Positions 1-63,630 of a DNA stretch of 64,000 bases are shown one piece after another; position 1 is the first letter of the stretch; the number at the start of each line of letters is the position of its first letter. The stretch covers positions 262,574 through 326,573 of the forward strand of contig CAZMLK010000001.1 of the NCBI GenBank assembly GCA_964567265.1. Direction: 5' to 3'. The notes under the pieces are model-generated. The model saw only the letters and a list, made by a program, of their open reading frames with translations. It had not been told where the DNA came from and searched no databases. This DNA comes from an uncultured Candidatus Saccharibacteria bacterium (GTDB lineage: Bacteria; Patescibacteriota; Minisyncoccia; Phycocordibacterales; UBA12088). Both the position numbers and the translations under genes were made by a program.

Positions 1-110
1 GTTTAAATAATAAAAAGAATAATAATCCTTGTGAGAAGCTATCCGCTGTAGAAGAGTGCAGCAAGCATCGGAAATAACGTACTGAATCGAATTGGCTTCT
101 AGGCTTCTCT

Positions 111-599
111 ATGGCAGAAACTAAAAAAAAAGTACAACTCAAGGTCGGAGACGTATTCGAAATACGTTTATCTGATGGCACCTATGCGTATGGTCAGTAC
201 TACGTACAGGATAAAGGGGGTGATGTCGGAAGGTTCTTTTCTTATAGAGGAAAAGAAAAAATTTCACCTGAAGAGGTCGTAAAATATCCATTGTTATTCC
301 CTCCGGTACATGTGGGGATACGTGCATCACTTAATGATGGAGTATGGGTGGTTGTAGGGAATGTACCAATAACAGATTTTGAAGAGCCCATGTTCCGAAG
401 TGAATTTTCTCTTACCCCGGGAAAGTTTGGAAAGTGGTATATCACACAGGGTGATAAGGTTGAAGAGGTGGGGTATGTGCTCCCAGAAAAATATAAAAAA
501 CTCGAACGCAAAGGCGTTTGGCCAGGTGACTGGGTAGATGAGCGTATTGAGAATGGAGGAAAAATACCAGAAAGATTGAAATGGATGGGCCAGTCCTGA
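111..599 (+). CDS. hypothetical protein, possible immunity protein of a displaced polymorphic-toxin cassette
   Basis: 162-aa ORF with ATG at 111 in an AT-rich block upstream of an orphan Rhs toxin tip. No recognisable catalytic motif. The function is inferred from context only. Confidence 0.45.
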   Translation: MAETKKKVQLKVGDVFEIRLSDGTYAYGQYYVQDKGGDVGRFFSYRGKEKISPEEVVKYPLLFPPVHVGIRASLNDGVWVVVGNVPITDFEEPMFRSEFSLTPGKFGKWYITQGDKVEEVGYVLPEKYKKLERKGVWPGDWVDERIENGGKIPERLKWMGQS

Positions 600-626
600 T
601 TGAAAGCAATAAAATAATAGTACAAT

Positions 627-896
627 ATGGAAATGGAATTTTTCTTGTATTTTTCTACAGAATCTAAAGCAGAGCAGGCGAAAAAAGAAATTCTAAAAGT
701 ATATCCGCAAGCTGTGATTGAAATTAGAAATGCTGCAGAAGGGGATCAGATTCTTTGTCTTACACGATTCACCGTCAATGGAGGTGCTCCAAGTGCGCTG
801 GATGAGATTGATGCGCGCCTTGAAAATATTTCACATCAATTTGGCGGTGACTATGACGGTTACGGTACTTCCCTAGAGGCAAATATTTCGGAATAA
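627..896 (+). CDS. hypothetical small protein, possible orphan immunity gene
   Basis: 89-aa ORF ending in TAA at 894-896, directly abutting the start of GC-rich Rhs-derived sequence at 897. Confidence 0.35.
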   Translation: MEMEFFLYFSTESKAEQAKKEILKVYPQAVIEIRNAAEGDQILCLTRFTVNGGAPSALDEIDARLENISHQFGGDYDGYGTSLEANISE

Positions 897-1026
897 ACCC
901 ACCTCCCAGACCAGTCTCTTCAAGGATGCCGTCACCTCCACCCTCGGCGCAGCGAGCTACGTCATCAGCACGACCACCGGCACGTATACCGACACCTACA
1001 CCGGCGGAGCCTTCCGCGACTGGTGC

Positions 1027-2028
1027 ATGGGCGCAGCCGCCTTCAAGCCGGCAAGCACCACTTCAAGTGCCACAACAACCACCCGCTATCTCCACACCGA
1101 CCACCTCGGCGGAACCCACTTCGTCTCTGATGCCACTGGTGCAGTCATCGAAGCCATCGACTACTACCCGTATGGACAGAATAGGGTTGATACCAAAGTA
1201 GGTACCTACACCGGAGAGAAGCGGAAGTACATTGGAGAAGAGTTTGACAGTGCGACGAATCTCTCGTACCTTAACGCGAGGTATTACAACGGGGCACGGG
1301 GGAACTTCCTGAGTGAGGATCCAGTATTCCTCGGCACTGAACAAAATCTTGAGGATCCTCAGGCTCTCAATTCCTATGCGTATGCGAATGGGAATCCGAT
1401 AACCAAAAGTGACCCTACTGGAAAGAGCTGGCAAACCTTTGGGCAAGGTGCCGCAAGTCCCTTTGTTTACGCTTATAATCATCCCTTACAGACAGCTGGA
1501 GTATTTGCATTGACCACTGTGGCAGTACTGGCAGCGCCTGTTACGGTCGCCGTGATAGGTGCTGCTGCTGGAGGTTATGCAATAGGAACAGCTGGCTTCA
1601 GTGCCTACACCGCTCCAAATGCAGATGCAAGAGATTACTATATTGGGCAGGCTCTCACATTCACTGGACTAACTGCTGTTGGAATCAAGGGGAGTTCCTC
1701 AGTAAGTGCTACAAAGTCAACATCACGGCAAACATCAGGCAGCCCAGATTTTATCGTAGATGTAAACGGACAAGTATTTCCTGTTCCCAAGGGGGCAACA
1801 GGACCAGTACCCGTTATAAATAAAGCTGGTAAGGTTACTGGCAGTGCATTTACTGGTGGTTCAGGCGGTGAAAATGGACAAGTCACTACGATGAGAATTA
1901 TGGATCCCAACTCAAGTAATCCGACTGGATATATAAAATACACAAATGCCAATAAACAAGGGGTGAATCCGAATACGGGAAAGACTGGCACACCTGCTGA
2001 GACGCATTACCCAGCAAACACTAAGTAA
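1027..2028 (+). CDS. orphan Rhs/YD-repeat C-terminal fragment with a variable toxin tip (no N-terminal Rhs body in the window)
   Basis: The translation carries the Rhs core C-terminal signature: TGTYTDTYTGGAF, RYLHTDHLGGTHFVSDATGAVIEAIDYYPYGQ, ARYYNGARGNFLSEDP and DPTGK. A hydrophobic stretch and an unrelated C-terminal domain follow. The frame is open from 877 and sequence homologous to Rhs cores starts at about 897. The first in-frame ATG is at 1027. Confidence 0.75.
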   Translation: MGAAAFKPASTTSSATTTTRYLHTDHLGGTHFVSDATGAVIEAIDYYPYGQNRVDTKVGTYTGEKRKYIGEEFDSATNLSYLNARYYNGARGNFLSEDPVFLGTEQNLEDPQALNSYAYANGNPITKSDPTGKSWQTFGQGAASPFVYAYNHPLQTAGVFALTTVAVLAAPVTVAVIGAAAGGYAIGTAGFSAYTAPNADARDYYIGQALTFTGLTAVGIKGSSSVSATKSTSRQTSGSPDFIVDVNGQVFPVPKGATGPVPVINKAGKVTGSAFTGGSGGENGQVTTMRIMDPNSSNPTGYIKYTNANKQGVNPNTGKTGTPAETHYPANTK

Positions 2029-2033
2029 CACTC

Positions 2034-2378
2034 ATGAATACCTTTGAACATGTCCTTAAGGGGAAAAAAGTAGAAGTTATCAACGATAAGCCAGAAAAAT
2101 ACGAAGACGGAACTGTCGGCAATGATTGGGGTCTGGGTTTCGAGGGAGATTGGGGCTTGGCAATCTATGCCAACAGGGTAATAAAAAATGCCGAGTCGCT
2201 GAAAGATTTCGTTGGTGAAAAACTTACTTCAATCCAAGAAACAGAGAATGCAGTTGTTTTCGACTTCACTCATGAAAAAAAAATAATAATTTCTTTGGAA
2301 GAAAAAGATTGGAACGGCCCGGAGATAATGATGCTACAACGAGATAATCAGATATATGTATGGGGTGTCGGTGAATAG
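2034..2378 (+). CDS. putative cognate immunity protein for the Rhs C-terminal toxin
   Basis: 114-aa acidic ORF starting 6 nt after the toxin stop, which is the typical toxin-immunity arrangement. It is AT-rich like the toxin tip. Confidence 0.55.
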   Translation: MNTFEHVLKGKKVEVINDKPEKYEDGTVGNDWGLGFEGDWGLAIYANRVIKNAESLKDFVGEKLTSIQETENAVVFDFTHEKKIIISLEEKDWNGPEIMMLQRDNQIYVWGVGE

Positions 2379-2447
2379 CCGGTAGCTGTAGTCAGAGATA
2401 CCTCCAATACTCTTTAAAAGGCAGGGCTCAATATTCTCCATATAATT

Positions 2448-2639
2448 ATGAAAAAGATACCAATAACGCTTCTGCCGATCGTTCTAATTTTGATCGTTCT
2501 CCTCCTGTTCACTTTCTACGTGCCGCAGAGCGGGGATTTGATTTCTAGTAAAGGTGACTATTACTTGGGGCAAGCGCTCGGCCTCCTAACAGTGCTTTCA
2601 CTCCTCTTGGATTTTATGAGGTTCCAGAATCGCAAGTAG
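2448..2639 (+). CDS. small membrane protein with two predicted TM helices
   Basis: 63-aa ORF with two hydrophobic segments, located in the AT-rich cassette region. Confidence 0.35.
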   Translation: MKKIPITLLPIVLILIVLLLFTFYVPQSGDLISSKGDYYLGQALGLLTVLSLLLDFMRFQNRK

Positions 2640-2683
2640 AAACCAGCTGTAGTCTGTCGCCGGGGACACATCCATTTGAAACT

Positions 2684-2908
2684 ATGAAAGAAGAAATACT
2701 AATGCCGCTTGATGAAGAGGGAATCACCGTCTATCGACCCGTTTTGGCATTAAGGATTAATGATCACATTTATAAAATTCTTGAAGATACCTTAAATAAC
2801 CAAAATGATGAAGTTTGGGCCTTTAAGCCAGGTGAAGTCGTAGAGGTTGTTGAAAAAGAATTCGAGAATAAAAAATCATTGGTTGCCGTAAATTTGTACA
2901 AAGAATAA
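2684..2908 (+). CDS. hypothetical small protein
   Basis: 74-aa ORF in the cassette region with the same orientation as its neighbours. Confidence 0.35.
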   Translation: MKEEILMPLDEEGITVYRPVLALRINDHIYKILEDTLNNQNDEVWAFKPGEVVEVVEKEFENKKSLVAVNLYKE

Positions 2909-2953
2909 TGTATTTAACGCAAAGTCAGTCGTAATTAAACTGAATTCAATTCT

Positions 2954-3214
2954 ATGAACGACGGAAATAAACTTACACCGGATGAAGCATATAAGGCTAT
3001 GTTTTTCTTTCTAGATCGATGGTGGAAAGAAGGAGGACAGAAAGAAGATAACATTGCAAATATACTCAGTAGTATGTCTCTTTTAGCAGATGGTTCTTCT
3101 GCGGACGGCGCTATGATGCAAGACTGGAAAAATAGTGTCAAAAAGGTTCTCGAGTATCGAGGAAGGGTGGAAACGGGGGAAGAACCATGGATGTTGAATT
3201 TGACTAATAATTAG
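2954..3214 (+). CDS. hypothetical small protein, possible orphan immunity gene
   Basis: 86-aa ORF. GGGGACACRTCCA-like junction motifs flank this gene and the previous one. Confidence 0.4.
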   Translation: MNDGNKLTPDEAYKAMFFFLDRWWKEGGQKEDNIANILSSMSLLADGSSADGAMMQDWKNSVKKVLEYRGRVETGEEPWMLNLTNN

Positions 3215-3382
3215 GTCTTAGAATGGTATTGTCTTGTGGCGGCGTAGGGGAGTAGCGGGGGGACACGTCCAATATTCCTCCAAAATCTGTGGAGTACTAT
3301 TCTCCATCTGTCCGGTAGGGGTGGGACCAACACCACTACTTGCTTTTTTCTGGGCTTGCTGCATAATGTCGCTCATTAAATT

Positions 3383-4258
3383 ATGACCGATTTAAAGCAG
3401 CAAATCCACGAGAATACCCTCCGTGCCTACATATGGATGGCCGCATTAACCACCATCATAGGCGTGCTTGGCACGCTGATTTCCTATTCATTTGATTGGG
3501 GACTCACTGGTACTGGCTCGTTTCTCCTTGTAGCCGGTTTCATCAATTTTCTTGCCTATTTCTTTTCAGATAAGCTCGTCCTTCGTGCAACGGGAGCAAA
3601 GCCTGTTTCTCTGGAACAGGCTCCTGAGCTCTACGAGATTGTCGAGCGGTTGTCACAAAAGGCCGGCATTCCTGTACCTAAAATATATCTCATTGACGAG
3701 CGTGCATTGAATGCGTTTGCCACAGGCAGAGACCAGAAGCATAGCGCGGTGGCAGTCTCAAGAGGTCTTCTTGAGCACATGACTGCAGATGAAGTTGAAG
3801 GAGTCGTCGCCCACGAGCTTTCACACATTCGGAATTACGATATGCGATTTGCAGCCATTGTTTCCGTACTTGTTGGCTTTGCGAGCATCGTAGCTGATCT
3901 GTACTGGTCATCTCGCATGGTCAGTGCAGCCCAGGAAAAAGATCGATCCGGCATACTGGCGATCATCGGACTTGTTCTTGCCGTGGCAACACCACTTACG
4001 GCCATGTTTATCCAGTTGGCAATATCGCGAAAGCGCGAATTCATTGCCGATGCTGCAGGAGCGACATTGACTGAGAATCCTAAAGCGTTGGCCTCGGCAT
4101 TAAAGAAGATTGCGCTTGATGTACGTCTCCCGTCGGGGATCAGTCCTGCTACTGCACATATTTATTTTTCCACCCCGAATAAAGACTCATTCATCGAGCG
4201 GCTGTTCGCAACCCATCCTCCAATCGAAGAACGAATCAATATCCTTGAGTCCAAATAA
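3383..4258 (+). CDS. htpX: HtpX-like M48 zinc metalloprotease
   Basis: Two N-terminal TM helices, a HELSH zinc motif (HEXXH) and a C-terminal ATHPPIEERI region typical of HtpX. A CATAAT-like -10 lies upstream near 3364. Confidence 0.9.
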   Translation: MTDLKQQIHENTLRAYIWMAALTTIIGVLGTLISYSFDWGLTGTGSFLLVAGFINFLAYFFSDKLVLRATGAKPVSLEQAPELYEIVERLSQKAGIPVPKIYLIDERALNAFATGRDQKHSAVAVSRGLLEHMTADEVEGVVAHELSHIRNYDMRFAAIVSVLVGFASIVADLYWSSRMVSAAQEKDRSGILAIIGLVLAVATPLTAMFIQLAISRKREFIADAAGATLTENPKALASALKKIALDVRLPSGISPATAHIYFSTPNKDSFIERLFATHPPIEERINILESK

Positions 4259-41220: not shown

Positions 41221-41293
41221 TTTTTTTGTGGGTACCGCATGGCGCTACCCATTCGGAATCTAAAATGCGCAGCTTTGTGCTAAGGTGTCATGG

Positions 41294-42466
41294 ATGACCG
41301 AATTCTCATACGAAATACTGAAGCGAAAAGGTAATGCCCGTGCAGGCATCATTCATACCCCGCATGGCGATATCGAGACGCCGGCTTTCGTCGCGGTCGG
41401 CACCAAGGGCACGGTGAAGGCGCTCACGCCCGAGATGCTGGAGTCCCTCGGCTCCCAGATCATCCTTTCGAATACCTACCATCTCTACCTCCAGCCGGGC
41501 GATGAGACCGTCCGTGACGCGGGCGGTCTCCATAAATTCGCCAACTGGGACAAGCCGTTCATGACGGATTCTGGTGGCTTCCAGGTATTCTCGCTCGGCG
41601 CTGCCTACGGGAAGCAGCTCACCAAGATCGCGAAGGAGGCGATTCCGGATGAATCGAGCACGCCTGCAATCTACGACGAGGATATCGCGACACAGCACGG
41701 CCAGCTCGCGATTATCGATGAAGAGGGTGTCACCTTTACCTCGCACATCAATGGCAGCCTCCATCGCTTCACGCCGGAGCGCTCGATCGAGATCCAGCAT
41801 AATCTCGGAGCAGACATCATCGTCGCATTCGACGAATGCACGTCGGCAACGGCTTCGAAGGACTATCAGCATGAAGCGATGGATCGCACGCATCGGTGGG
41901 CAGAACGCTCCTGGAAAGCGCACAAGCAGAATCTGGATGCGTCCCGAAAGCAGGCGCTCTTTGGTGTCGTCCAAGGCGGACGATTCGAAGATCTCCGGCG
42001 TGAAAGTGCAAAGGCAATTGCCGACATGCCATTTGATGGATTCTGCATCGGCGGTTCATATGTGAAGGAAGACCTCGACACCGCCGTCGGCTGGGTATGC
42101 GAGGAATTGCCTGAAGACCGCCCACGTCATCTCCTTGGTATCGGTGAGCCGTCGGACCTCGTCTCAGGAATCGCGAAAGGTGTCGACATGTTCGACTGCG
42201 TCGCGCCGACGCGCATAGGCAGGAATGGCTGCGTGTACTCCAAAGCAGGGAAGTTAAATCTTTTGAATGCAAAATTTGTCCGCGACTTCGGTCCGCTGGA
42301 CGAAGGGTGCAGCTGCTACGCCTGCCGGAACTACTCCCGCGCGTACATCGCGCATCTTTTCCGCGCAGACGAGATGCTCGCAGCCGTCCTCGCCAGCATC
42401 CACAACATCCATTTCATCGTGAACCTCGTCAAAGCAGAGCGCGAGAAGATATTGATGATGAGATAG
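41294..42466 (+). CDS. tgt: queuine tRNA-ribosyltransferase (tRNA-guanine transglycosylase)
   Basis: ARAGIIHTPHGDIETPAFVAVGT, DCVAPTR and CSCYAC zinc-site motifs. ATG at 41294 with SD AAGGTG. Confidence 0.95.
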   Translation: MTEFSYEILKRKGNARAGIIHTPHGDIETPAFVAVGTKGTVKALTPEMLESLGSQIILSNTYHLYLQPGDETVRDAGGLHKFANWDKPFMTDSGGFQVFSLGAAYGKQLTKIAKEAIPDESSTPAIYDEDIATQHGQLAIIDEEGVTFTSHINGSLHRFTPERSIEIQHNLGADIIVAFDECTSATASKDYQHEAMDRTHRWAERSWKAHKQNLDASRKQALFGVVQGGRFEDLRRESAKAIADMPFDGFCIGGSYVKEDLDTAVGWVCEELPEDRPRHLLGIGEPSDLVSGIAKGVDMFDCVAPTRIGRNGCVYSKAGKLNLLNAKFVRDFGPLDEGCSCYACRNYSRAYIAHLFRADEMLAAVLASIHNIHFIVNLVKAEREKILMMR

Positions 42467-42530
42467 CTTTTCGGAGGAGCTTCTCGAAGCATACCCTCTC
42501 ACTATCCACAGTTTTCTGTTCTAATGCCAT

Positions 42531-42558
42531 TTGCAACATTCGCGCACAGCGGTAGAAT
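42531..42558 (+). promoter_or_regulatory. sigma70-like promoter TTGCAA-16-TAGAAT
   Basis: Lies upstream of a structured non-coding segment. Confidence 0.45.
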
Positions 42559-42564
42559 GATATG

Positions 42565-42736
42565 GCTGAAGCGTGGATTGGTTTTATGAGCAATCATTAT
42601 TAGAAGTAGGGGCTCTTATCTTGATTGCGAAGTATCAGGGGTAAAACCTTAAATGCTTCAGCAAAACATTGCGGTATCGGTCTTCTAACGATGACTTGTG
42701 CCTTGATGCTTCGCAATCAGTACGAGAGCCTTTTTA
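42565..42736 (+). ncRNA. candidate structured small RNA (promoter plus long imperfect hairpin plus T-run), family unknown
   Basis: 5' arm 42609-42640 pairs with 3' arm 42701-42730, including GATTGCGAAGyATCA on both arms. An outer GGCTCT/AGAGCC pair closes the stem, followed by TTTTT. No convincing ORF. Confidence 0.3.
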
Positions 42737-43111
42737 ATTCCTCCTCAAAGTTCCCATGAGGGGGCGTTAGAAATAGTAGGGCACCCCCCCCTGTACCCTC
42801 GAATGTTGCACGTTACGCGACTGCATCATGGGAAAATATTTTCTCAGGTGTTTCCCGGGTGAGAACGGCACGGTTTGCTGTGAACATCCAAATGGCAGCT
42901 GGATTTGCTTTCCAGCTGGAAATGCAAAAGACCCGTCAAACGACGAGTCTCTCGCATAAGTCTGGCGACTTCACAACGCTCCCTACGGGGAGCTTTGTGT
43001 TTTTATTTTACCCTGCTTCGCATGAAGCAGAGATGTGCACTTTACCGTATTTGGGGATAGCTACGCAAATCAATTTTGTCTACCTGTCTTTATGGAATAG
43101 GTACCAAAATG

Positions 43112-43140
43112 TTGACTGATTAGCTAAATACTTGTATAAC
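43112..43140 (+). promoter_or_regulatory. sigma70-like promoter TTGACT-17-TATAAC
   Basis: About 35 nt upstream of the GGAGG SD and ATG 43176. Confidence 0.5.
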
Positions 43141-43175
43141 CCCTATAGCACAATTTCGTGCGCGGAGGTTATTCG

Positions 43176-43736
43176 ATGCCAAGAGGAAAAAAAGCCACTG
43201 GGGCGGATGCGAACAAGCAAGGCACTGCAGTAATAGGCAACGGGGCGCCGAGGCCAAGACGGCCGAGAGTTAATCCAGAAACCGCAGTATTGCCGCTTGT
43301 AAATGTTCCTGCACGCGACACGGTCGATGAGATCCCGGCCGATTCCGTGGTTGCGGAGGAAAATCCAGATTTCACAGCGGGCGAACGAGACGGTCTCGTC
43401 GAAAGGGTGGAGCTGCTCTCGAGTGAACTGGTAGGGCGCGACAGCACTATCGAAACCCTGCGTGCGGAAATTGCCACACTCAAGATGGAGAATGCATCTT
43501 TTCGAGAAGAAGGTACCACCGGCGGAATCCAGTTCGCAGTCCTGAAGACCGCTGCTCTGATGCTCCTATTTCCGAACGGCATCTCAAAAAAAAGAGCGGG
43601 TGAGCTGAGACAGGCGTACATTCATGCTCCCAAAAGTATGGCGAGCAAGGAGGTCTTAGCAGCAATCATCTGGCTCATCAGAGAGGCATACGAACAGGAG
43701 TTGCTGGAGGAATTTCCAGAAGCCGGACACGTGTGA
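43176..43736 (+). CDS. hypothetical protein with a basic N-terminus and a coiled-coil
   Basis: GGAGG lies 7 nt upstream of ATG 43176. Low GC. No recognisable domain. Confidence 0.55.
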   Translation: MPRGKKATGADANKQGTAVIGNGAPRPRRPRVNPETAVLPLVNVPARDTVDEIPADSVVAEENPDFTAGERDGLVERVELLSSELVGRDSTIETLRAEIATLKMENASFREEGTTGGIQFAVLKTAALMLLFPNGISKKRAGELRQAYIHAPKSMASKEVLAAIIWLIREAYEQELLEEFPEAGHV

Positions 43737-43752
43737 CATCCTGAATCACTGC

Positions 43753-43792
43753 GGCCGACACGAACCATATGGTTCGTGTCGGCCTTTTTTAT
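43753..43792 (+). terminator. rho-independent terminator
   Basis: GGCCGACACGAACC atat GGTTCGTGTCGGCC followed by TTTTTT. Confidence 0.75.
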
Positions 43793-59664: not shown

Positions 59665-60009
59665 ATGTCAGAACTTGCCAAAAAACACTGCGAAGCGTGC
59701 GAAAAAAAAGGGACGCCGCTGGCGCTCCCTGCTGCCGAGGAATTCCACAAAGAGGTGTCTCTGTGGCACCTCGCCGAGGACGCATCTAAGATCGAGCGGA
59801 CCTTCCATTTCGGCGATTTCGAGGAAGCGATGGAATTTGTGAACGCGGTCGCGGAGCTGGCGGAAACAGAGGGCCATCATCCTGATTTCTTCATTTCCTG
59901 GAACAAGGTCCGGCTCACCCTTTCCACTCACTCCATCAAGGGGCTGTCCGAAAACGACTTCATTCTGGCCGCGAAAATCGACGAAATCCTTCCCCCGCCA
60001 GAACTTTAA
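59665..60009 (+). CDS. 4a-hydroxytetrahydrobiopterin dehydratase (pterin-4-alpha-carbinolamine dehydratase)
   Basis: EGHHPDF signature with the length and pattern of PCD/DCoH. Confidence 0.85.
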   Translation: MSELAKKHCEACEKKGTPLALPAAEEFHKEVSLWHLAEDASKIERTFHFGDFEEAMEFVNAVAELAETEGHHPDFFISWNKVRLTLSTHSIKGLSENDFILAAKIDEILPPPEL

Positions 60010-60051
60010 AATTCTGGGAAGGTATGGTATTCTCTCGAAGTCCGCAGATAC

Positions 60052-60124
60052 GGGCCCGTAGCTTAGTTGGTAGAGCACCTCATTTGCAATGAGGGGGTCA
60101 GGAGTTCGAATCTCCTCGGGTCCA
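60052..60124 (+). tRNA. tRNA-Ala (anticodon UGC)
   Basis: Cloverleaf folded by hand. Acceptor stem GGGCCCG/CGGGUCC with a G3:U70 wobble pair, D-arm GCUU..GAGC, anticodon loop UUUGCAA, T-arm AGGAG-UUCGAAU-CUCCU and discriminator A73. CCA is not encoded. Confidence 0.9.
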
Positions 60125-60126
60125 CA

Positions 60127-60167
60127 AAATACAAAAGCCCTGCCACTTTGGCAGGGCTTTTGTATTT
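60127..60167. terminator. 19-bp perfect-stem hairpin terminator, bidirectional
   Basis: AAATACAAAAGCCCTGCCA ctt TGGCAGGGCTTTTGTATTT. Inner stem of a larger 89-nt palindrome. Confidence 0.7.
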
Positions 60168-60378
60168 CAGTGAATGACCCGAGGAGATTCGAAAGCCGGA
60201 AAACAATGCTCCCGGGGAGCAGTGTTTGAGGCGGGGTCGCGAACACTGAGCAACTCGTGAGCGAAAATGCGCTCGTCAGGATGTTCCAATCACCAATAAG
60301 AACATTTCCTGGAGAAAGCCAAGATGGTAGCATATCTACTATACGTTTTTTATAAGTCGATTTTTCAAATTTTGAAGC

Positions 60379-61788
60379 ATGTCAACATCACACACCCTGA
60401 AGGCACTCGCATTCGGGATTACACTGCTCGCGTTCGCTCCTATCTCTTACGCGGCATTTGATACCGATCTCCAGTTTGGCGCAAAGGGCGCTGAGACAGT
60501 TGAGCTCCAAAAAGTACTGATTAGTCAAGGATATCTGAACGGGACTGCGACCGGTAATTTCCTTTCGTTGACAAAACAGGCAGTTATCAAATTCCAGAAA
60601 GCGTCGAATGTTCCGGGAACGGGCTATGTAGGCCCGCTGACTCGTGCGAAGCTTAGACTTCTAGTCGGAACCCCTGTTACATCAACTCCAATCATTGCGA
60701 CAACAACGATCGCTGTTCCTGCAGTGCCAGCTCCAAGTGTTTCAACTCCCCAAGTGCCGGCAATTCCATTTTACGTTGCGAAAACTATCTGGGAGTTTTC
60801 CGATAACACGAGCCCGTTCCAACTTCCGGCCACGAATACTCCCCCCGCTTCAAATTTCGTAGACCCAGCACTTTTTACAGAGAAGCAAATAGATCCACGT
60901 GCGATCGTGCTTGTGCGGTGCCTGTATGTGCCTGACTACTCCAAAACGAGTTACAAGGGAAGTACCGAACCCCAAGTGTTTTCAGGTACGGGCGTCGTCG
61001 TTTCGCCGGAAGGGCATATTCTCTCGGCTGGCCATATCTTGAATGGTGCAGTGCTGCTTGAAGAGTCGGGCTCGAATGTCACTTGGACAAGAAAGGGGTG
61101 CGACATTGCGCCAACATCTTCCTCACTAACCCCTATAGACCCATCTGCTGGTGTTTCAAATAAAACACACTTCGATCCTGTGGAAATCGTCTTCGAACCT
61201 TCCGCAACGGAGTTCAATGTCATCAAGGTGACTGATCCAGACAGCCCCGGAAAGACAATAACGCTTGGAGGAGGTGCCGATCTTGATTTCGCCCTCCTGC
61301 AGGTGAAGGGTCTCAATCTTCCGTATGCGCCCCTTGCGTCAAAATTGCTTTCTCTGAAGCCTGGCGAAAAAACAATAGGGCTTGGATACCCTGGAGTTGC
61401 CGGTAACCCATATGGGTTGGAGCGTATCGACGGACAGTTTGATGGATATATCTGGTCAGAATATTCCACATGTGTAGGGAAGATGATCGTTGAGCGCTGT
61501 GGAGTCAGTTACCAGACAAAACGCTATAAGAATGAGTACAAGAAGCTCTACGGCGTCCAGACTGAACTCGGCAAACATACGAGTTACTTCCGCGGCGGTT
61601 TCTCAGGCGGACCATTGTTCTATAAAGGAAATGTTATCGGCATCATTACATTCGGACGCGAAAATTCCTACACCAATCTGTATGATCTCTCAACGGTCGG
61701 ACTCTGGAACTGGGTGGTCGCGCTTTCATCCAACGAGATCGTGACGACATTGAGGATGCACGGAATCAATCTCGCAACGGTTCCATAG
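60379..61788 (+). CDS. secreted trypsin-like (S1) serine peptidase with an N-terminal peptidoglycan-binding domain
   Basis: Signal peptide. PG_binding_1-like repeat (ETVELQKVLISQGYL...KFQKASNV). His region LSAGHIL, GGFSGGPLF serine motif. Low GC. Confidence 0.7.
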   Translation: MSTSHTLKALAFGITLLAFAPISYAAFDTDLQFGAKGAETVELQKVLISQGYLNGTATGNFLSLTKQAVIKFQKASNVPGTGYVGPLTRAKLRLLVGTPVTSTPIIATTTIAVPAVPAPSVSTPQVPAIPFYVAKTIWEFSDNTSPFQLPATNTPPASNFVDPALFTEKQIDPRAIVLVRCLYVPDYSKTSYKGSTEPQVFSGTGVVVSPEGHILSAGHILNGAVLLEESGSNVTWTRKGCDIAPTSSSLTPIDPSAGVSNKTHFDPVEIVFEPSATEFNVIKVTDPDSPGKTITLGGGADLDFALLQVKGLNLPYAPLASKLLSLKPGEKTIGLGYPGVAGNPYGLERIDGQFDGYIWSEYSTCVGKMIVERCGVSYQTKRYKNEYKKLYGVQTELGKHTSYFRGGFSGGPLFYKGNVIGIITFGRENSYTNLYDLSTVGLWNWVVALSSNEIVTTLRMHGINLATVP

Positions 61789-61914
61789 AGCCTACGATCA
61801 ATGCTCGAGCAGAGTAATGTTGTCCGCGTTCTTCCTTGCCACGCGCATGATTTCGTGTTTTATTTCCGCTAGACCAATGGCGCATTCCGCGCCATATGAG
61901 TGGAGTTGCTTGTC

Positions 61915-63630
61915 ATGATGTCCGAAAACGCCCGCTATCTCTACGAAGTGCTGTTTGCTGGATTTGATTTCCGTCCACCACATCCGAATAGGTCGCTTCC
62001 GGAAGTGGTTCGGGATGCAACCGAAGCGGTTGAGAAGCATCTGAAGAATTCTCCACTGCTCCGTGCCTATCTAGAAACCGTTCCAAAAGGGCCGGGTACC
62101 GATTGTCCCGATTCACCGCTTGATGAGCTTGTCTACTATGTAGCCACTCAGAAAGGCTGGGTCGACAAGAAGGATCCGTATCTGAATCTCAGATTCCTCG
62201 CACGCTTCGTGCTTCCGGTCTTCGAGATGGAACGCCATGTGGTCGAGCGTGCTATTCACGGTCTTCGAGCGATCACTGAACAGCAGGAACTACTCTTTCT
62301 AGACTGCATTCTGCACGCGCGAGCCGTCGATCGGCTTTGGCAGCGCTGGTTCGAGAAGGTGGCTGCACCGTTCCAATCGCTCGACAAGGAGGGGCAAGAA
62401 CGGCAGAAAAAGAAGCTGGGGAATATCCTTCCACCATATGACTATACGGCTTTTGAGATTGATCCTTTTGGAGATATCCAGAATCGCCGTCCATGGGCAA
62501 AGGCATTCCCGAAGGAGATTGCGGCAATTGACGCGTCACTCCGCGAGCTTGAAGAAACGGAAGATCAGTATCTTGCCGAATACTTCCGAGCCCTTCGCCT
62601 GGCATACACCTGCGACCGCATCGAAAATCTGGAAGAACGCTGGGCAGAGGTAGACCGCGCGTGGGTACTGATTCCATCTGACAGCGAGATCATCCCTGTC
62701 CATGGCATGGAAAGCGCGTACGGTCATGCGTTCTGCGTCAGTCCGGAGTTCAGGCTCGAGTTCCGAACTCCGGATTCCATACGTGAGATCGAGCTCCAAC
62801 GAAAAGCTGCCGTAGAGCATGCAGACAAGATTCTCGGGCTCAGCAACGCGCTCATACTTGAGGCATCAAAAAAACTGCGGCGAATCGATGTCAGCGTCTT
62901 CACCCCCGGTATTCGTGCCGGCAGTTGCATCGATTTCCGGTATGCGGGCCAGGCGGTTCCAAATCGCCAGGCAGTGCTTCTGATCGGCGGCAAGATATTC
63001 GTCGATCAGAGCGATCCGGCGCGTGTTGCAGAGCGATATCAGACCTTGATTCTGCGTCACTGCGCTCCTCATACTGCCGCTCAAATCGCACCGCTCCTCA
63101 CGCGCGAAATGCAGATCATGGGTACGATCACTCATGAGTTCGCACATCCGATCGGAAGGACAAGCGCAAGCGACGAGATGCTTGGGCATACCGTCGTCTT
63201 CCAGCTCGAGGAAGGGAAGGCGACACTCGGCGGCATTTGCGCTGAGGAGTATGCCGATCCGTCTCCGGAACATCGCCTCCAGCTTGTCGCCAATGCTGTC
63301 GGTCGGATGCTCAGGTTCATGCAGCATTCTGAAATTACGAATCCGACCATTGCTCCCTATGTCCGGGAGAATCTCGTGACGGCGACGACGCTCTATGATG
63401 CGGGAATCTTGTCACTCTCCAAGCAGGGTTTGGAGATTGATATCGGGATGGCCAGCAGTCCGTATTGGTTCCAGAATCTCCGCGTTTTCTACGGAGATTT
63501 GGTCGCTGCATATGAGTCAAAGGATGCAGCGGCAATTGCATCCATGACCACTCTGTATGCCAATCCGGATGATCCGCAAATAGTCGAACTTATCGAGTGG
63601 GTAAACCGCGAGCTTCCGGCCGCAGCATAA
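61915..63630 (+). CDS. large hypothetical protein with an HEXXH motif (ITHEFAHPIG), unknown family
   Basis: 571 aa from ATG 61915; the ORF-track start at 61900 is a GTG. No recognisable family; possibly a zinc peptidase-like protein. Confidence 0.6.
   Translation: MMSENARYLYEVLFAGFDFRPPHPNRSLPEVVRDATEAVEKHLKNSPLLRAYLETVPKGPGTDCPDSPLDELVYYVATQKGWVDKKDPYLNLRFLARFVLPVFEMERHVVERAIHGLRAITEQQELLFLDCILHARAVDRLWQRWFEKVAAPFQSLDKEGQERQKKKLGNILPPYDYTAFEIDPFGDIQNRRPWAKAFPKEIAAIDASLRELEETEDQYLAEYFRALRLAYTCDRIENLEERWAEVDRAWVLIPSDSEIIPVHGMESAYGHAFCVSPEFRLEFRTPDSIREIELQRKAAVEHADKILGLSNALILEASKKLRRIDVSVFTPGIRAGSCIDFRYAGQAVPNRQAVLLIGGKIFVDQSDPARVAERYQTLILRHCAPHTAAQIAPLLTREMQIMGTITHEFAHPIGRTSASDEMLGHTVVFQLEEGKATLGGICAEEYADPSPEHRLQLVANAVGRMLRFMQHSEITNPTIAPYVRENLVTATTLYDAGILSLSKQGLEIDIGMASSPYWFQNLRVFYGDLVAAYESKDAAAIASMTTLYANPDDPQIVELIEWVNRELPAAA

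Follow-up and report, generated by a model that had tools for sequence, protein, structure and literature searches.

Integrative elements that insert into the 3' ends of genes rebuild the gene that they enter and are flanked by direct repeats, attL and attR. The insert described here lies at the end of tgt in the window, i.e., the whole 64-kb stretch of DNA that was analyzed. It resembles these elements in that it is flanked by a repeat of the gene end, tgt stays whole apart from a small change at its terminus, and the original gene end now lies on the far side, whereas it differs from them in that it is only 637 bp in length, carries no integrase and no cargo genes, and has imperfect repeats with indels. 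A second comparison is with REP/BIME elements and MITEs. The extragenic position past the 3' end of a gene, the tandem palindromic units, the presence or absence by strain, and a GTAG just 5' of the large palindrome (42606-42609) are shared with these elements, whereas the insert is confined to a single locus, as neither the 64 kb nor the relatives contain another copy. The arms and loops of REPs are much shorter than those of the hairpin in this insert. MITEs possess terminal inverted repeats and a short exact target duplication; the insert, unlike them, has no terminal inverted repeats, and its direct repeat of ~20 nt is imperfect.

At the RNA level, the hairpin is similar to intrinsic terminators in that a GC-rich helix is followed by a U-run past the stop codon of a gene on the same strand, and it is dissimilar in its size, as the stem-loop spans 122 nt, of which 63 nt form a branched interior. 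In its length of roughly 130-170 nt and its irregular pairing, the hairpin recalls 6S RNA; in contrast to 6S RNA, the 5' 45 nt are unpaired with the 3' end, and the interior is a multi-branch loop and not an open-promoter-like bubble. The arrangement of four segments, in which the hairpins exclude one another and a U-run comes after the last of them, is that of classical attenuators. However, neither a recognizable leader peptide with regulatory codons nor an aptamer, T-box, or protein-binding motif is present at this locus, and there is no credible downstream gene inside the unit.

The explanation favored here, with a probability of approximately 0.5, is that the hairpin is a terminator-type stem-loop on an orphan insertion, where it would end both tgt read-through and a transcript of its own of ~170 nt. 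A low-GC, hairpin-rich segment of ~637 bp was inserted into the last codons of tgt in the lineage of this strain only. It borders a hypervariable locus that is prone to recombination, and an imperfect duplication of ~20 bp of the tgt stop region bounds it. The segment contains two copies of one palindromic unit, and the GC-rich basal helix of the large copy (42609-42733), together with U5, would constitute a factor-independent terminator. The product would be a structured 3' tail of tgt and/or an orphan RNA of ~170 nt. The features of the locus are listed in Table 1.

Table 1. Features of the tgt 3' end, the insert, and the adjoining gene (positions in the window).
Feature	Position	Strand	Remarks
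tgt (queuine tRNA-ribosyltransferase)	41285..42466	+	Pfam TGT E = 1.2e-138
Left direct repeat AAGATATTGATGATGAGATAGCT	42446..42468	+	Carries present tgt stop; aligned with empty sites of L081 and L089
Strain-specific non-coding insert, ~637 nt, hairpin-rich	42469..43105	.	Absent from relatives
SD-like hairpin	42472-42498	+	
Promoter-like TTGCAA-16-TAGAAT	42531..42558	+	TTGCAA 42531-42536, TAGAAT 42553-42558; 9/12 consensus matches
Palindromic unit 1, shorter and diverged version of the large-hairpin arms (GGCTGAAGCGTGGATTGG ... GCAATCATTATTAGAAG)	42565..42608	+	Arm alignment, repeats
Alternative fold	42565..42663	+	-35.1 kcal/mol, z = -4.4; mutually exclusive with terminator hairpin
Palindromic unit 2 (the hairpin under study)	42609..42735	+	U5 at 42731-42735
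Small hairpin CCTCCTCA/TGAGGGGG	42741..42765	+	Related, in inverse orientation, to terminator 42972-42999
C8 run	42784..42791	+	Sequence
ORF, 43 codons, without Shine-Dalgarno sequence or relatives	42828..42959	+	
Perfect 8-bp palindrome	42896-42919	+	
Strong intrinsic-terminator-like hairpin CACAACGCTCCC/GGGAGCTTTGTG then TTTTTATTTT	42972..43009	+	
7-bp hairpin	43013-43030	+	
Right direct repeat AAAATGTTGACTGATTAGCT	43106..43125	+	Displaced original tgt end, L-T-D-stop as in relatives
Promoter of next gene, TTGACT-17-TATAAC	43112..43140	+	Conserved in L081 and L089
Gene for 186-aa protein, fast-evolving, mosaic, function unassigned	43176..43736	+	Immediately right of insert

The insert has a GC content of 46%, compared with the window average of 56%, and is the largest ORF-free stretch of the 64-kb window. 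A comparison with a conspecific genome (L081), in which the flanks are 97-100% identical to the window and Tgt is 98% identical, reveals an empty site: only 52 nt lie between tgt and the next gene in L081, and the alignment runs to window position 42455 and resumes at 43106. The same empty site is present in L089, L090, and L091, which constitute the second close relative (nucleotide identity of 84-88%), and in L001-L003 and L082-L084; all of the more distant relatives, these six and others, lack the insert and have a short spacer. The distance between tgt and the next gene is 50-60 nt in the conspecific, in the second close relative, and in every more distant relative. In total, 80 genome loci were fetched via tgt, and further close relatives were obtained through protein look-ups; the relatives of tgt are from uncultured small-genome bacteria, mostly labeled Candidatus Saccharibacteria. 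All of the closer relatives from the protein look-ups are devoid of the insert except L088, which has the same sequence. L088, an independent assembly, matches the window at 100% identity across 5.5 kb that contain the insert, which indicates that the insert is not a scaffolding artifact.

The empty site of the relatives reads AAGATATTGACTGATTAGC(C/T), and two versions of it are present in the window, where they flank the insert. The resulting direct repeat is imperfect, ~20 nt in length with indels, and the blocks that are exactly common to both sides are TTGA, TGAT, and TAGCT. The reading frame of tgt, the gene to which the sequence-only reading had also assigned the upstream frame, is preserved despite the insertion. 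The C-terminus of the protein has changed because of the insertion, with the last codons reading ..KILMMR-stop here and ..KILTD-stop in the relatives. The insert-side ends, when joined (...AAAATGTTGA to TGATGAGATAGCT), resemble the empty site AAGATATTGACTGATTAGCT, and the circle junction expected from the ends of the insert would be ...GGTACCAAAATGTTGA-TGATGAGATAGCTTTT....

The insert forms the left edge of a mosaic, hypervariable segment (window 43140-43790). The gene of the 186-aa protein cannot be aligned with its L081 copy, although the L081 flanks are 96-100% identical, and over 43213-43403 it matches the copy of the more distant L089 at 91-93% identity. In the flanks, the relationship is reversed, which indicates that the locus has been shuffled by recombination. 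The 186-aa protein belongs to no Pfam family and has only one relative among 5.8 billion clusters. In the relatives, the promoter of this next gene (TTGAC[CT]-17-TATAA[CA]; L081 1333-1361, L089 near 3937-3965) has a -35 box that overlaps the tgt stop, and its conservation in L081 and L089 indicates that the lineage uses sigma-70-type promoters. This arrangement also indicates that tgt and the next gene are tightly coupled in genomes without the insert. The insert separates tgt from a promoter that overlaps it in the relatives, and local transcription is therefore probably changed.

The hairpin itself had been described from the sequence as long and imperfect, with (T/C)ATCA cores, a GGCTCT/AGAGCC closure, and a TTTTT end, and all of these elements are present. 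The repeat finder returns an inverted repeat with arms at 42611-42640 and 42701-42730, 30 nt each and 80% complementary, at a spacing of 60 nt. The arm cores GATTGCGAAGTATCA and GATTGCGAAGCATCA are each confined to these two places within the 64 kb, and the core pattern shared by the arms, GATTGCGAAG(T/C)ATCA, has no other occurrence in the window. The stem is closed by the GGCTCT/AGAGCC pair, and TTTTT follows directly at 42731-42735. From the base upward, the hairpin consists of a 9-bp basal helix (GGGGCUCUU/GAGAGCCUU), a 3x3 internal loop, a 17-bp helix that includes two G-U pairs, and the branched interior.

The hairpin alone (42606-42736, 131 nt) folds at -55.9 kcal/mol (z = -7.5), and none of 200 shuffles is equally stable. 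The longer stretch 42560-42736 reaches -64.4 kcal/mol on the plus strand (z = -5.5; 0/200 shuffles equally stable), in agreement with the structured region that had been proposed, and -44.4 kcal/mol on the minus strand (z = -4.6), which is 20 kcal/mol weaker. The hairpin is real and statistically strong, and it is not annotatable. A 15-nt exact match (GGGGTAAAACCTTAA) to the interior of the hairpin (window 42638-42652) is found in L010 (5179-5193), 8 nt past the tgt stop of this distant relative, whose Tgt is 58% identical; the match has no extension and is probably due to chance.

When the whole insert is folded, the z values are similar on the two strands (-6.3 for plus and -6.5 for minus), and the energy alone therefore cannot show the strand, or distinguish RNA from DNA. 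Three features point to the plus strand, namely, the U-runs, the greater stability of the hairpin there by 20 kcal/mol, and the promoter-like site. At 42927-42962, the minus strand forms a 16-bp hairpin with four G-U pairs that is far superior to its plus-strand counterpart, which indicates that some structure in the insert favors the strand opposite to that of the main hairpin.

A role of the hairpin in ending tgt read-through is proposed because no terminator follows tgt ahead of the next gene in the relatives. On the plus strand of the window, the terminator scan detected no other terminator-like site between the tgt stop (42466) and the hairpin. In the putative mechanism, the 3' arm, on being transcribed, would close first the 17-bp helix and next the GC-rich basal helix beside the U-run, which corresponds to the geometry of an intrinsic terminator. 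The hairpin would also stop the transcript that begins at TTGCAA-16-TAGAAT, if that promoter is active. The GC-rich stem is located directly before the U-tract and follows a gene of the same orientation, as is characteristic of a terminator; the 60 nt between the arms are not the small loop of a compact terminator, and the terminator scan, which covers loops of 3-8 nt, missed the hairpin. Against this explanation, the hairpin is far larger than the compact terminators elsewhere in the window, which have arms of 18-34 nt (77-100% complementary) and loops of 3-6 nt.

The promoter is a further weak point of the terminator explanation. The site TTGCAA-16-TAGAAT, which the sequence-only reading had proposed as a promoter, is present and would place the transcription start near 42565, yet its match is no better than chance: the 1-kb region contains two promoter-like sites, compared with 1.0 +/- 1.0 in shuffles, and TTGCAA-16-TAGAAT alone is not above the chance level. 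With respect to coding potential, the earlier statement that about 170 nt contain no credible ORF agrees with the searches. The ORFs of the hairpin stretch are all 44 aa or shorter; Pfam and PHROG gave no match to them, and an exact look-up in a collection of 15 billion proteins did not return them. The gene callers called no gene within the insert, a 119-codon open frame gave 0 matches in an exhaustive HMMER search of 1.84 billion representative proteins, and the 43-codon ORF at 42828-42959 is probably non-coding. A 13-codon ORF (MAEAWIGFMSNHY, 42562-42603) overlaps palindromic unit 1 in a leader-peptide position; it is without a ribosome-binding site, and its ATG is 3 nt upstream of the predicted transcript start.

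The same hairpin could instead be part of a strain-specific, trans-acting sRNA of ~170 nt that starts near 42565, ends at U5 (42735), and was acquired horizontally with the insert. The promoter-like site, a 5' stem from the predicted +1, and a terminator all lie on one strand, the fold is more stable on that strand by the 20 kcal/mol given above, and the stretch is without an ORF and is the largest non-coding one in a compact genome, as represented by the window. Nevertheless, this reading is considered unlikely, as the region is absent from the conspecific strain L081, the promoter match is at the chance level, no target or partner protein is evident, and no search returned a homologue that could provide covariation support.

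These searches covered RNA families, the relatives, and several sequence collections. At the gathering score, Rfam 15 gave nothing in the whole window except a tRNA-Ala at 60052, which agrees with the earlier failure to match RNase P, tmRNA, SRP, or riboswitches by eye, and ARAGORN found no tRNA or tmRNA in the hairpin region. At E <= 10, one wide and two narrow regions yielded only chance or generic matches: the plant miRNA-precursor model MIR847 (36.5 bits compared with a gathering score of 184), a match explained simply by the presence of a long hairpin; RT-5 (13.4 bits compared with 45.7); and a Tetrahymena snoRNA model (E = 9.7). Conservation in related genomes was not borne out, as blastn and nhmmer with the intergenic region against the loci of the relatives returned no homologue, and a covariance model of the hairpin found nothing further in the window or in the loci of 19 relatives. 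A self-blast of the window, the part of the 622-kb contig in which copies within the source genome were sought, revealed no second copy of the insert in 64 kb. Phage and plasmid records contained no copy in the distant mode of blastn, and the matches of pattern scans of viral and metagenome contigs, which need exact seeds of 18-21 nt and which diverged copies would escape, all fell in unrelated coding sequence. The literature search found nothing on integration at tgt or on structured RNAs in Patescibacteria.

The only second copy of the hairpin, that in L088, is 100% identical and offers no base changes to compare, and no homologue with compensatory changes is present in the searched collections. 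By these comparisons, the hairpin does not appear to be a member of a conserved sRNA family. The suggested likeness to 6S RNA fails, as no Rfam 6S match is obtained at E <= 10 and the region is absent from L081 and the other relatives; this absence also excludes a housekeeping RNA such as 6S or SRP. Of the structured sRNA with its own promoter and terminator that the sequence-only reading proposed, the structure and the U-tract terminator stand, and a sigma-70-type promoter is plausible; the sRNA idea as such is neither confirmed nor refuted. The insertion of ~640 nt with its direct repeats, the tandem palindromic units, and the competing upstream fold had escaped that reading.

The possibility that the insert functions as DNA is comparably doubtful. 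The insert would then descend, as a remnant or in miniature form, from an integrative or mobile element with the tgt 3' end as its target, and the palindromes would be protein-binding or single-stranded DNA structures. The z values of the whole insert are equal on the two strands, such that the palindromes could act at the DNA level, which also counts against the terminator explanation. Both ends of the insert mimic the target, with the end of tgt rebuilt as at attL/attR. The low GC content and the presence/absence polymorphism within one species are also consistent with a mobile origin. However, the repeat finder detected no terminal inverted repeats between the two ends of the insert, Pfam and PHROG searches of all ORFs revealed no integrase, transposase, or recombinase in or next to it, no second copy occurs in the window or the searched collections, and 637 bp is far below the size of an autonomous element. 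The lack of terminal inverted repeats, a recombinase, and a second copy in the searches also counts against the explanation by a terminator on an orphan insertion.

A more improbable reading is that of an attenuator or riboswitch-like leader, in which an antiterminator (42565-42663) would compete with the terminator (42609-42735), and a signal would decide on read-through into 42737-43005. The arm alignment resolves 42562-42735 into a tandem pair of diverged copies of one palindromic unit, of which the hairpin is the larger, and a competing fold is the consequence. In the alternative fold, 42565-42574 pairs with 42654-42663, 42580-42587 with 42641-42648, and 42590-42596 with 42622-42628, and the 5' arm is engaged by 42590-42604, a segment that repeats part of the 3' arm in direct orientation. 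The alternative fold begins exactly at the transcript start predicted from the -10 box and has 42614-42663 in common with the hairpin. Both mutually exclusive folds are significant (z = -4.4 and z = -7.5), and the alternative fold is the MFE structure of every transcript prefix that ends from 42660 to 42710, with the full-length hairpin winning later. Additionally, a second strong terminator closes the downstream unit.

In contrast, the competing pairings arise automatically because the palindromic unit is duplicated in tandem, and 9 nt of the 5' arm are free in the alternative fold, such that the terminator could displace it easily. The sole downstream ORF has 43 codons with neither a ribosome-binding site nor relatives, Rfam shows no match to a known aptamer, and there is no conservation. 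The readings are not fully exclusive of one another. A very improbable further reading is that of a miniature, protein-less integrative element whose cargo RNA has a terminator/antiterminator switch and which is mobilized in trans into the tgt 3' end; if true, it would represent an RNA-gene cassette that moves between strains of a small-genome, Patescibacteria-type bacterium.

Several other candidates were rejected: a decayed tandem copy of the next gene (tblastn of the neighboring small proteins against the insert returned nothing); a group I or II intron (no Rfam match, tgt intact without splicing, and no possible splice point in the repeat that would restore ..KILTD-stop and provide both the 5'-exon U and the terminal G); a REP/BIME or MITE (no further copies found, no terminal inverted repeats); and a retron, DGR, integron attC site, or omega/bridge RNA (no nearby reverse transcriptase or recombinase, matching repeats, core sites, or Rfam matches).

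The main value of the insert lies in a well-delimited presence/absence polymorphism, represented by a single-copy orphan on a recent insertion, with no comparative support. Approximately 700 nt of non-coding DNA is exceptional in so streamlined a genome, and expression of the RNA, if it occurs, would make it a rare case of a strain-specific, horizontally acquired non-coding RNA in such a highly streamlined genome.

Two further observations concern other parts of the window. The 3' part of the tRNA-Ala gene (60052-60125) has a 25-nt inverted copy (88%) at 60176-60200 (window 60098-60200), and a perfect 19-bp terminator hairpin at 60127-60167 separates the two; the inverted copy may be a trace of an integration event. 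Additionally, the GC content is 0.43-0.49 at window positions 1-4000 and 60001-62000, compared with about 0.56-0.60 elsewhere, and these regions may be further foreign or non-coding segments.
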